A stretch of DNA of 33,302 bases from an uncultured Rhodocyclaceae bacterium (GTDB lineage: Bacteria > Pseudomonadota > Gammaproteobacteria > Burkholderiales > Ga0077523), in the NCBI GenBank assembly GCA_964641005.1, contig CAZXJW010000001.1, positions 2,415 through 35,716 of the forward strand, given 5' to 3'. The notes under the pieces were generated by a model. That model saw only the letters and a list, made by a program, of their open reading frames with translations. It was not told the DNA's origin and did not search any database. Positions 22,811 to 33,302 of this stretch are shown piece after piece (the first letter of the stretch is position 1; each line of letters begins with the position of its first letter). The position numbers and the translations under genes are program-made.

Positions 22811-25800
22811 ATGACCATCTACACCGTCACGGCCGGCATGACGATTCTGGGCAACGACAGTGTCCAGGGCACCGGCGGCACCACGGATGCGGTGAACCTG
22901 CTCTTCACCGGGGGCGACATCTCGGTCTCGGGCGTGGAGACGGTGGTCGGCTCCACCGGCACCGCCGACATCGCGGTGCAATTCGGCAGCGGGGCCTCGG
23001 ACCTGTCGGTGAGCGCGGTGGAGACGGTGCTCGGCCGCGCGGCCGAGACCGACGCCGTCACCCTGCTGGGCACCTACGGCACCCTGCGGGTGAGCAACGT
23101 GGAATCCGTCACCGGCACCGCCGGCAGCGGCGAGATCGTCGCCATGCTCGGCGCCGGCGGCCTGTCCGTCTCCGGGATCGAGACCGTTCTCGGTTCCTCC
23201 GGCACCGACACCGTCGCGCTGCTCGCCGACGCGGCGCTGGCGGTCTCGGCGGTCGAGACCGTGATCGGGTCGACCGGCACCACCGACACCGTGACGGTGC
23301 TGAGCAGCGGAACGCTGCGCGTGTCCGCCATCGAGACGGTCGTGGGCACCGCCTCCCCCAACGCCGTGGCACTGCTCGCGGCCGAGAACGTGGCCGTGAG
23401 CAACATCGAGACCGTGATCGGGGTCGCGGGCGCCGAGAGCGTGACGCTGCTCGCCTCCGGAGCGGCCAGCATGGCGCTTTCCCGCGTCGACACCGTGGTG
23501 GGTACCGGGAACGCCGGCGACCAGGTGCGCCTGCTCGGCGCCCAGACGCTCGACGTGAGCGCCGTGGAGACCGTGACGGGCTCCACCGCAACGGGCGACA
23601 CCGTGCGCTTCCTCGACACCGACGCCACCATGACGGTGTCCGCCGTGGAGCTCGTGGTGGGCTCCACCGGAACCGACGACGTGCTGCGCTCGCTCGGCGG
23701 CGGCAACGTCTCCGTGTCGAACATCGAGTCCGTGCTGGGCACGGCGTCCGCCGACACCATCACCCTGGTGGGCCAGACCGCCGTGATCGTCTCCGGCATC
23801 GAGACCGTCACGGGCACGGCCGGCACGGCCGACGCCGTCACGCTGCTGCAGGACAGCGCCATCGCGCTGTCGGCCGTGGAAAGCGTGGTTGGCGTGGCGG
23901 GCAGCAACGACGCCGTGCGCATCCTCGGCACCGGTTCCGTGGCCGTGTCCGTCTCCGCCATCGGCACGGTGCTCGGTTCCACCACCACCACGGAAGTGGT
24001 GCAGCTCATCGACGCCGGCGACACGCTGCGCGTGAGCCACGTGGACACGGTGCTCGCGACCACCGGCACCGGCGACACGGTGATCATGCTGGCCGCAGGT
24101 GGCCTCGCGGTGAGCGAGGCCGAGACGGTGGTCGGCTCCGCCGGCACCGACAGCCTGACCCTGCTCTCGGGCGACGCGGTGTTCCACGTGAGCGCCATCG
24201 AGACCGTGGCCGGCACCGGCGGCACCGATGCCGTGCAGCTGCTCGCCGCCCTGCCCGGCGGCACCGCGCTGGCGGTGACCCAGGTGGCCACCGTGGTGGG
24301 CACCTCGGGCGGCGCCGACAGCGCCCGCCTGCTGGGCGCCGGCACCGTGTCGGTGTCCGCCATCGAGACCGTGCTGGGCGCCGCCGGTGGCGGCGACAAC
24401 GTGGAACTGCTCGCCACCCAGACCCTGGTGGTGTCCGACGTGAACCGCGTGGTGGGCGTGGCCGCCACCACCGACGTGCTGCGCCTGCTCGGCGGTGCGG
24501 CGGTGAGCGTGTCCGCCATCGACACCGTCATCGGTTCGGTGGGCACCGACGCCGTGGTGATGCTCTCCGACGACAACGCCGTGCTGGTGTCGCTGGTGGA
24601 GACGGTGACCGGTTCCGCCGGCACCACCGACACCGTCAACCTCGCCGGCTTCGGGACCGTGGCCGTGACGGCCGTGGAAAGCGTCGTCGGCTCGGCCGGC
24701 CAGGACGCCATCCGCCTGCTCGCCGCGGGCGCGGTGGGCGTGTCCGCCGTGGACACCGTCATCGGCTCGGCCGGCAGCGATGCCGTCACCATCCTCGGCT
24801 CCGGACCCACCGTGAGCCTGAGCGGCGTGGAGACCGTGGTGGGCACCACGGCCGTGGGCGAGATCGTGCGCCTCATGGCGCCTTCCTCGATCTCGGTGAG
24901 CGCCATCGAGCAGGTGCAGGGCAGCACCCAGGCCGGCGACACGGTGATCATGCTGGGTAACGCATCGGTGTCCGTGTCGGTCACCAACGTGGAGACCGTC
25001 CAGGGCACCACCGACACCGGCGACGTGGTGCGCCTGATCGGTGGCGGCGCGGTGCTGCTGTCGGCCGTCGAGACCGTCTCCGGCTCCGCCGGCGGCGACG
25101 TGGTGACCCTGGCCGCGGCCGGCACCATCACCGTGGACGGCATCGAGACCCTGATCGGCACCGCGGGCGCCGACACGGCGGAGCTGCTCGCCGCCGGCAC
25201 GCTGGGCGTGAGCGCCATCGAGTCGGTGATCGGCGGCACCGCCAGCACCGACGTGGTCCAGATGCTCTCCGCCGCCACGCTGCTGGTGAGCAACGTGGAC
25301 ACGGTGCTCGGCTCCTCGGGCACCGACGTGGTCACCCAGCTCGGCGGCTCCGGCCTCGCCGTGAGCAACGTGGAGACCGCCATCGGCACGGCCGCCACCG
25401 ACGACACCGTCACGGTGCTCGGCGGCAGCGTGCGCGTGTCGGCCATCGAGTCCGTGCTCGGCACCGTGGGCACCGAGAGCATCGTCCTGCTGGGCAGCGG
25501 CGTCACCGTGAACGTGGCCGAGGTCGACACCGTGACCGGCAGCGCCGGCACCGACGTGGTGAACCTGCTCTCCAGCTCGCCCGTGGCCCTGTCCGACGTG
25601 GAGAGCGTGGTGGGCGGCTCGGGCGTGGACGTGGCTCGCCTGCTGGCCGCGGGCACGCTGTCGGCCTCCGCCATCGACACGGTCATCGGCAGCGCCGGCA
25701 CCGACGTGCTGGCCCTGCTGGGCGCCGAGGACAAGAACATCGCCGTGTCGGCAGTGGAGACGGTGCTGGCCACCGCGGCGGGCACCGACACGGTGACCAT

Positions 25801-33302: not shown

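Follow-up and report, generated by a model that had tools for sequence, protein, structure and literature searches.

The window analysed here, a stretch of 33,302 nucleotides of contig CAZXJW010000001.1 from an uncultured Rhodocyclaceae bacterium, ends inside a giant gene whose product is a tandem array of 25–29-residue units. We consider it probable that the window holds the N-terminal part of a fibre protein that a type I secretion system (T1SS) exports and that folds as a β-solenoid derived from RTX (repeats in toxin) proteins. This reading is built on the gene and its repeat, on their homology and collinear conservation, and on the C-terminal architecture and gene neighbours of the relatives, all of which are observed directly.

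A giant gene encoding 134 tandem units

The G+C content of the window is 72%, and many frames are open, including several long ones that overlap the array region on both strands. A single plus-strand frame (22511–33301) has the codon-position signature of a gene, with G+C contents at the three codon positions (GC1/2/3) of 0.66/0.56/0.96. The long antisense frame of the array region displays the mirror image of this pattern, indicating that it is not coding. The giant gene starts at the ATG at 22811, with GGAGA positioned 9–13 nucleotides upstream, and the orthologous N-termini in two metagenome-assembled genomes (MAGs), one from Burkholderiales (L099) and one from Rhodocyclaceae (L031), begin at the corresponding Met. 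In particular, both MAGs share the head MTIYTV[TS]GGMTILG.DSVQG. The frame has no stop up to the end of the window, so that 3,497 codons are visible.

To count the units, we use a hidden Markov model (HMM) trained on the window protein itself. It finds 134 tandem units in the visible protein, the first of which starts at residue 12, corresponding to nucleotide 22844. An earlier reading made from the sequence alone (the sequence-only reading) had placed the start of the array at exactly this nucleotide and had estimated about 135–140 repeats of about 25 residues. The start-to-start spacing is 26 residues in 58 cases, 25 in 38, 27 and 28 in 15 cases each, 29 in five and 23 in two (mode 26). Column counts give the consensus V-S-A-[VI]-E-T-V-x-G-[ST]-[AT]-G-T-(x)-D-x-V-[RT]-[LM]-L-[AG]-[AG]-G-T-L-A. 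The Gly after ETVx is kept in 129 of the 134 units, the Val of ETV in 123 of 134, the Glu or Asp of VETV in 127 of 133, and an Asp or Glu closes the loop in 132 of 133. The sequence-only reading had described two separate flanking strands, L-x-V-S and [VI]-E-T-V; they turn out to be parts of a single contiguous conserved segment, L-A-V-S-A-[VI]-E-T-V-x-G.

The composition is as extreme as that reading had noticed. The 3,497 residues include no Cys, one Trp, four Tyr, four Lys, three His and 14 Phe, and 325 acidic residues stand against 67 basic ones (D+E 9.3%, K+R 1.9%). The N-terminus, MTIYTVTAGMTILGNDS, has no basic n-region; a Pfam search of the first 1,000 residues and the translation reveal no Sec-type signal peptide, two-partner secretion (TPS) domain or retention module at the N-terminus. 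The window protein thus has features of a T1SS substrate, being acidic, poor in Cys and without an N-terminal signal peptide.

The loop that follows ETVx resembles the RTX turn but departs from it in most units. The pattern G-[ST]-x-G-x-D-x-[VIL], which had been ascribed to each unit, is matched by 25 of the 134 units, and the relaxed pattern G..G.[DE].[VILAM] by 43. The invariant Gly is separated from the acidic residue by four residues, the RTX spacing, in 57 units, by five in 68, and by six or seven in 6. The array as a whole has neither the Gly-Gly-x-Gly-x-Asp turn of RTX nor its tandem nine-residue nonapeptide period, the period of the window protein being 25–29. There is one exception: in the unit at 33188–33217, and in no other, the VSxVETVxG segment is swapped for SFSGGGGADTVIG, a canonical RTX nonapeptide, after which the array resumes. 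Since Gly-Gly has given way to Gly-Ser/Thr and more than half of the units contain a one-residue insertion, the Ca2+ loading of the window protein is probably partial or irregular. The earlier proposal of one potential Ca2+-binding corner per turn is doubtful for this protein, in which only about a third of the loops have the RTX spacing and Gly-Gly is left in eight units.

Relatives of the array

Serralysin-like relatives join the unit directly to an RTX block. Four such proteins (P0003, P0004, P0006 and P0008), each about 800 residues long, come from Alphaproteobacteria and Magnetococcales. In them, an M10 protease domain and the first nonapeptides of RTX type are directly followed by about 15 copies of the same 25–26-residue unit as in the window, in this case with canonical GGxGxD, and then by a shared C-terminal domain. 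In a multiple alignment, the window units and the serralysin-like units align in register. Throughout the set P0001–P0008, about 15 units behind the serralysin-like M10 domain take the place of the usual RTX β-roll or lengthen it. The units of this set alternate in pairs (GGxGxDxVTL… and GSxGxDxLTLGNRGNT…), and the window protein has no such alternation.

Azospirillum genes of about 2,700 codons and about 100 units are 37–39% identical to the window array over about 620 residues (tblastn, E 1e-30 to 5e-34). The protein of A. lipoferum 4B (WP_244442703.1; 2,736 residues) has about 100 units with GxxGTD, and its last 699 residues pass the Pfam model HemolysinCabind with 39 bits. A distance of 5 kb separates the homologue in Azospirillum sp. 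B510 from genes for an ABC transporter with a C39 peptidase domain and an HlyD-family adaptor.

The closest relatives are betaproteobacterial. We scan GTDB genomes at the DNA level with a degenerate pattern of three E-T-[VL]-x-G motifs at unit spacing, which matches at least 120 blocks of 8 kb, and score these blocks by six-frame translation with the window unit HMM. Among the scanned blocks, those closest to the window come from Ideonella sp. YS5, several Burkholderiales MAGs, Rhodocyclaceae and Dechloromonas, and whole 8-kb blocks of these relatives are made of up to 104 units. The DNA pattern also has chance matches in Lachnospiraceae, Sorangium, Streptomyces and others, none of them confirmed by the unit HMM.

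Where the C-terminus of a relative is visible, it consists of RTX-type nonapeptides and a serralysin-type or related domain, and never of a β-barrel. In the clade-mates L079 and L001, the array passes into GGxGxD nonapeptides and then into a terminal domain that passes the serralysin C-terminal model PF08548 (36 and 22.4 bits, respectively). RTX nonapeptides and a terminal domain are also visible at the C-terminus in L059, L082, L038, L102 and L046. In the multidomain proteins P0016 and P0017, 10–14 units occupy the usual site of the RTX block, directly before GGxGxD and the C-terminal domain. In addition, genes for a T1SS ABC transporter or HlyD adjoin the arrays in L078, L021, L034, L086 and L090. 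Taken together, the serralysin-like proteins, the Azospirillum proteins, the C-termini, the multidomain proteins and the T1SS neighbours place the unit among RTX proteins and T1SS substrates, where it forms a wider module that stands in for the β-roll or lengthens it.

Three further observations concern the organization of the family. In a Burkholderiales MAG (L073), one giant gene of the family ends and the next begins, head to tail, inside one 8-kb block. In the STL-PRO80 MAG, two separate giant-gene N-termini (L010 and L027) lie about 15 kb apart on one contig (JAXMFE010000007.1, 160–184 kb). A distant member, P0022 (5,953 residues), has a unit of about 42 residues with two Gly/Asp turns (…N[VI]ETIIGGxGNDxVTL…G.[IV]DLGxGxDxLxLAxGxN…), which suggests that RTX-derived coils may come in a series of sizes built on a common [VI]-E-x-[VI]-x-G-G-x-G-x-D core.

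Placement in databases and family size

No part of the window protein passes the threshold of a Pfam or NCBIfam model; there is no Big (BIg-like) or other domain in the 3,497 residues, and the repeats begin right behind the short head. We use a profile of ten 12-unit segments of the array as the query. Against PDB sequences it retrieves 0 chains at E≤10. Against 1.84 billion representative proteins it retrieves 189 clusters at E≤1e-3, of which 105 reach 1e-10 and 30 reach 1e-30, with a best E of 9e-158, indicating that the repeat family is rare. NCBI names its members 'calcium-binding protein' or 'beta strand repeat-containing protein', and a literature search found no paper that describes the 25–26-residue unit.

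By homology, unit length and register, the window array falls into this unnamed family of 'VSxVETxxG…D' repeats of 25–26 residues. It lies outside PF00353 (HemolysinCabind) as defined, other members of the family being partly caught by that model. The window protein is the degenerate end of a small RTX-related family and not an isolated new class. The profile search that the sequence-only reading had called for thus yields no family model but 189 clusters of homologues, and the suggestion of an undescribed repeat class survives in part: no Pfam, NCBIfam or PDB model covers the unit, but the unit belongs to a small family whose members already have names. The relation to RTX is borne out, as the homologous arrays of Azospirillum and of the serralysin-like proteins have canonical GGxGxD at the equivalent position of the unit, and clade-mates end in nonapeptides and PF08548. 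The same reading had held that a confident match to HemolysinCabind would count against a new class; such a match is given by homologues (39 bits), but not by the window protein (20.3 bits, with a cut-off of 23).

Age and selection

The DNA copies of the unit are 60–80% identical in direct-repeat families, and there are no long exact copies, as had been noticed from the sequence. Tandem Repeats Finder reports only scattered short patches with a period of 75–81 nucleotides (73–83%). At the protein level, units are about 49% identical to one another whatever the lag (1 to 12); since this identity is flat across lags, the array has no super-repeat and no recent local duplication. For the same reason, a two-unit super-repeat of the kind found in the serralysin-like homologues is rejected for the window array.

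The window protein is collinear with the gene start in the Burkholderiales MAG L099 (OZ257154.1), with 70.2% identity over 2,377 residues; off-diagonal alignments between the two reach only 42–44%. It is also collinear with the Rhodocyclaceae MAG L031 (58.5% identity over 1,901 residues). The global alignment with L099 contains eight indels of one or two residues over 2,378 residues. By the Nei–Gojobori method, the window and L099 differ by a synonymous divergence (dS) of 0.70 and a nonsynonymous divergence (dN) of 0.23; the ratio of 0.33 is probably too high owing to the extreme GC3 bias. Each unit thus keeps an identity and a loop length of its own, and the array is old, stable and under purifying selection, in line with the earlier view that it is selectively maintained and not a product of recent slippage.

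Predicted structure

We predict the structure of the array with AlphaFold2, without ions, from alignments of non-overlapping segments of the window protein and eight homologues. One input comprises 12 units (309 residues, 19 rows) and the other eight units (210 residues, 24 rows). The mean predicted local distance difference test score (pLDDT) is 74.9 for 12 units and 75.9 for eight, and the predicted TM score is 0.68 and 0.70, respectively. Both models contain only β-strands, two to three per unit, with no helix and no residue below pLDDT 50. The predicted strands are strictly periodic: one of up to about ten residues covers L-A-V-S-A-V-E-T-V and is split in some coils, and one of five to seven residues covers D-x-V-x-L-L. 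The loops are predicted to fall at G-[ST]-x-G-T-(x) and at the A-G-G turn. The prediction argues for a regular solenoid-like fold and against disorder, as the sequence-only reading had expected. In addition, nearly all of the weak Foldseek matches are β-helices or solenoids, namely polygalacturonases, pectate lyases, tailspikes, the AlgE A-module, Tapirin, HpmA and left-handed β-helix (LβH) enzymes.

The unit is about as long as three nonapeptides (9+9+7/8), and the Azospirillum unit has a second turn, G-N-T. Therefore, a three-cornered coil is suggested, one corner of which would be RTX-derived.

Proposed model and alternative explanations

In the model that we favour, the gene encodes a giant secreted structural protein of a small RTX-derived family in Betaproteobacteria and Alphaproteobacteria. 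We infer its solenoid geometry, secretion, Ca2+ binding, glycosylation and biological role as follows. Each unit would form one coil of a parallel β-solenoid, consisting of the long strand L-A-V-S-A-V-E-T-V, a Gly/Ser/Thr-rich loop ending in the nearly invariant Asp or Glu, a second strand x-V-x-L-L and a short Gly turn. At a rise of about 4.8 Å per coil, 134 coils would make a rod of roughly 60 nm for the window part alone. By analogy with its relatives, the protein would be synthesized with no signal peptide and would pass in unfolded form, with its C-terminus leading, through a type I system that recognizes a C-terminal RTX and serralysin-type domain lying beyond the window. Outside the cell it would fold into an acidic fibre, for instance an adhesin, a component of a matrix or a filament on the cell surface. 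The loop would descend from the GGxGxD Ca2+ turn of RTX and would have drifted in the betaproteobacterial branch, from Gly-Gly to Gly-Ser/Thr and by the one-residue insertion.

A stronger version of the model is possible but doubtful. It holds that the array represents a structurally undescribed class of β-solenoid with one RTX-derived acidic corner and two new sides, forming fibres longer than 60 nm, with units that are conserved individually without concerted evolution, and that the gene belongs to a fixed two-gene module with a TPR–GT41 glycosyltransferase.

Several observations weigh against a type-I-secreted, RTX-derived solenoid. The C-terminus of the window gene, and hence any secretion signal, falls beyond the window; the last 72 nucleotides of the window have no exact match among genome contigs or metagenome contigs, and exact look-ups of three neighbouring proteins returned no record. 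T1SS genes (HlyB ABC transporter, HlyD) are absent from the 22.8 kb upstream of the giant gene; such linkage is not obligatory for T1SS substrates. The RTX spacing G..G.[DE] is present in 43 of the 134 units and Gly-Gly in eight. With a HemolysinCabind (PF00353) cut-off of 23 bits, the first 1,000 residues of the window protein score 10.8 and the last 497 score 20.3, the latter owing to the single GGGGADTVIG unit, which provides the only near-threshold match in the protein; the whole window protein gives nothing with this model. Foldseek finds no significant match in the PDB (best E 0.12 and 0.68, TM score at most 0.40), and the AlphaFold2 models are of moderate confidence, their alignments being shallow and made largely of the protein's own units.

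The main rival is a Ca2+-independent β-solenoid, which we regard as unlikely. The unit would descend from RTX but would have lost metal binding; V/I/L ladders and stacked Thr/Ser would hold the fibre together, and the Glu and Asp residues would provide surface charge or bind ligands. The scarcity of Gly-Gly fits this explanation, as do the 74 units whose loops are one to three residues longer than the RTX turn, the failure of the window protein with HemolysinCabind, and a loop-length pattern that matches the 70% orthologue position by position, indicating a stable design and not ongoing decay. However, the near-invariance of the acidic residues at the end of the loop and in VETV exceeds what surface charge alone would need, and relatives with canonical GGxGxD at the equivalent position pass HemolysinCabind. 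In addition, T1SS substrates as a class fold by means of extracellular Ca2+, according to reviews of RTX proteins (PMC3034196, PMC6891781).

Other secretion routes and non-coding explanations are essentially excluded. A passenger of two-partner secretion (FHA/TpsA-like) or of an autotransporter would account for a giant β-helical repeat protein, since both routes carry such proteins; the weak Foldseek matches to HpmA (a TpsA hemolysin), to pertactin and to further β-helices point in this direction, and some distant family members have other domains attached. It is nevertheless very improbable, because the N-terminus has no signal peptide, TPS or Fil_haemagg domain, the orthologues show the same short head followed directly by repeats, and the visible C-termini of the relatives are RTX-type without a β-barrel. 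That the array is no protein feature at all, its open frame and periodicity arising from G+C-rich DNA or from a non-coding tandem repeat, has a negligible chance of being right. The overlapping open frames on both strands would allow it, but the GC3 of 0.96 is confined to one frame, the orthologues are conserved as protein (dS exceeds dN), 189 clusters of homologous proteins exist elsewhere, and the divergence among the DNA copies is too great for an array made by slippage.

Comparison with known proteins

RTX repeats are the standard example of how folding outside the cell, driven by Ca2+, powers type I secretion. Like RTX β-roll proteins (PF00353; serralysin/AprA, HlyA, CyaA), the window protein is acidic, free of Cys and without an N-terminal signal, and has a Gly-rich loop that ends in Asp and is followed by x-U-x. 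Its relatives carry GGxGxD nonapeptides and PF08548 at the C-terminus and have adjoining HlyB/HlyD genes, and in the serralysin-like relatives the array directly continues the RTX block. Unlike RTX proteins, the window protein has a period of 25–29 instead of nine residues (18 per β-roll turn), with one loop per coil instead of two. Each unit has 17 further conserved residues (LAVSAVETV… and …LL..GTL) that are absent from RTX, and the loop is mostly G-[ST]-x-x-x-(x)-D, which fails the Pfam model.

The plasmid-encoded 'calcium-binding proteins' of Azospirillum (WP_244442703.1 of A. lipoferum 4B and WP_148219837.1 of Azospirillum sp. B510) share the 25–26-residue unit, in the form …VSGLETLTGxxGTDVVTLGTSGNTL…, as does the 'beta strand repeat-containing protein' P0009 of A. 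brasilense. Both the Azospirillum proteins and the window clade have TPR and glycosyltransferase neighbours. The Azospirillum units differ from those of the window in their strict GxxGTD spacing, frequent Gly-Gly, second G-N-T turn and recent duplications inside the array; in the window clade the loops vary in length and have G-[ST], and no duplication is recent. A literature search found no publication on the Azospirillum 'calcium-binding' repeat proteins.

The idea of one RTX-like turn per wide coil, raised by the sequence-only reading, has a conceptual precedent in region IV of MpAFP (MpIBP), the ice-binding adhesin of Marinomonas primoryensis. Reportedly, region IV of this giant T1SS adhesin has an RTX-like turn once per coil in a solenoid wider than the β-roll, and comprises about 13 coils with the consensus xGTGNDxuxuGGxuxGxux. 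It is a Ca2+ solenoid of 19-residue coils (PMC3492233). The window coils differ in their length of 25–26 residues, their number of 134 or more and their consensus; region IV has no sequence match to the window profile and is not among the listed Foldseek matches. RTX adhesins of the LapA, MpIBP and SiiE type have a retention module at the N-terminus and, as extender, tandem BIg-like domains of about 100 residues; the window protein has neither.

The Cag_663 and Cag_665 megaproteins of Chlorobium chlorochromatii offer another conceptual precedent. They are modelled as a repetitive β-helix of hundreds of nanometres with predicted Ca2+ sites, and the proposal is that a T1SS exports them starting from the C-terminus and that they fold once outside (bioRxiv 10.64898/2026.03.19.712371). 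Organism and repeat are different, no homology to the window protein was found, though no search aimed at it was made, and the cation sites are predicted every ~250 residues and not per coil.

A glycosyltransferase gene next to the giant gene in relatives

A TPR–GT41 gene, identified by phmmer on six-frame translations, is located directly downstream of the giant gene and on the same strand in seven of the nine betaproteobacterial loci that show the C-terminus of the giant gene (L038, L079, L001, L082, L059, L046 and L106). The TPR protein encoded at L038:2855-7993 (+) matches Glyco_transf_41 with 338 bits and has a GT9-like region. In Azospirillum, TPR proteins and glycosyltransferases flank the giant genes (L121:13781-15952 (-) and L122:17053-18819 (-)); the TPR neighbours there show TPR repeats only in Pfam. 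The giant gene and the TPR–GT41 gene thus look like a conserved two-gene module. Because the TPR–GT41 gene follows the giant gene in the relatives, the Ser/Thr-rich giant protein may be glycosylated. N-glycosylation in the style of HMW1C is unlikely, as N-x-S/T sequons are not enriched (12 in 3,497 residues). If the protein is glycosylated, O-linkage to the abundant Ser and Thr would be more likely.

Genomic context

The coordinates of the giant gene and its parts are listed in Table 1. The sigma-70/DUF6596 factor gene upstream ends at 22030, and the stretch between it and the giant gene is presumably the promoter and leader of the latter.

Table 1 Features of the giant gene and its upstream region in the window
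Feature	Position	Strand	Basis
Giant repeat-protein gene, 5' part (3,497 codons, no stop)	22811..33301	+	GC3 0.96, ATG and GGAGA, orthologous starts
Conserved N-terminal head MTIYTVTAGMT	22811..22843	+	Matching head in L099 and L031
Array of 134 tandem units of 25–29 residues	22844..33301	+	Self-trained HMM, spacing table, column counts
Unit with canonical RTX nonapeptide GGGGADTVIG	33188..33217	+	Translation, position
780-bp stretch without clear coding signal, before the giant gene	22031..22810	+	Collapse of the GC3 signal at ~22000–22800

The genes upstream of the giant gene within the window are housekeeping or unrelated. They encode UbiA, a complex-I/hydrogenase-4-like cluster, RecG, Kup, a Sir2 protein, a PepSY_TM protein, a TonB-dependent receptor, DUF2946, an M55 peptidase, a YCII protein and the sigma-70/DUF6596 factor. 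The complex-I/hydrogenase-4-like cluster (1333-8471, minus strand) contains Oxidored_q6, a fused 30-kDa/49-kDa/NiFe-like subunit, NADHdh and two Proton_antipo_M subunits; the GC3 signal switches frame several times at ~3300–5500, and the gene boundaries there are uncertain. A 366-codon open reading frame (13083-14183, minus strand) weakly matches the ferredoxin-like domain of Api92-like proteins (DUF1281_C, 25 bits). The PepSY_TM, TonB-dependent receptor and DUF2946 genes lie in a row (15135-19425, minus strand) and form a typical metal-uptake-type cluster that is apparently unrelated to the giant gene.

Implications

The findings extend a known theme and do not overturn current understanding. 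The family shows the RTX nonapeptide built into a wider coil, with its Ca2+ signature then partly lost under continued selection. The unit-by-unit collinearity across more than 90 units between genomes is a clean case of a long tandem array that evolves without concerted evolution. A family model would give consistent names to megaproteins that are now labelled inconsistently, and the conserved TPR–GT41 neighbour is a lead towards glycosylation of a T1SS substrate. If the undescribed class and its module with the TPR–GT41 gene were real, they would constitute a new type of surface filament, glycosylated, exported by the type I route and common to Betaproteobacteria and Alphaproteobacteria.

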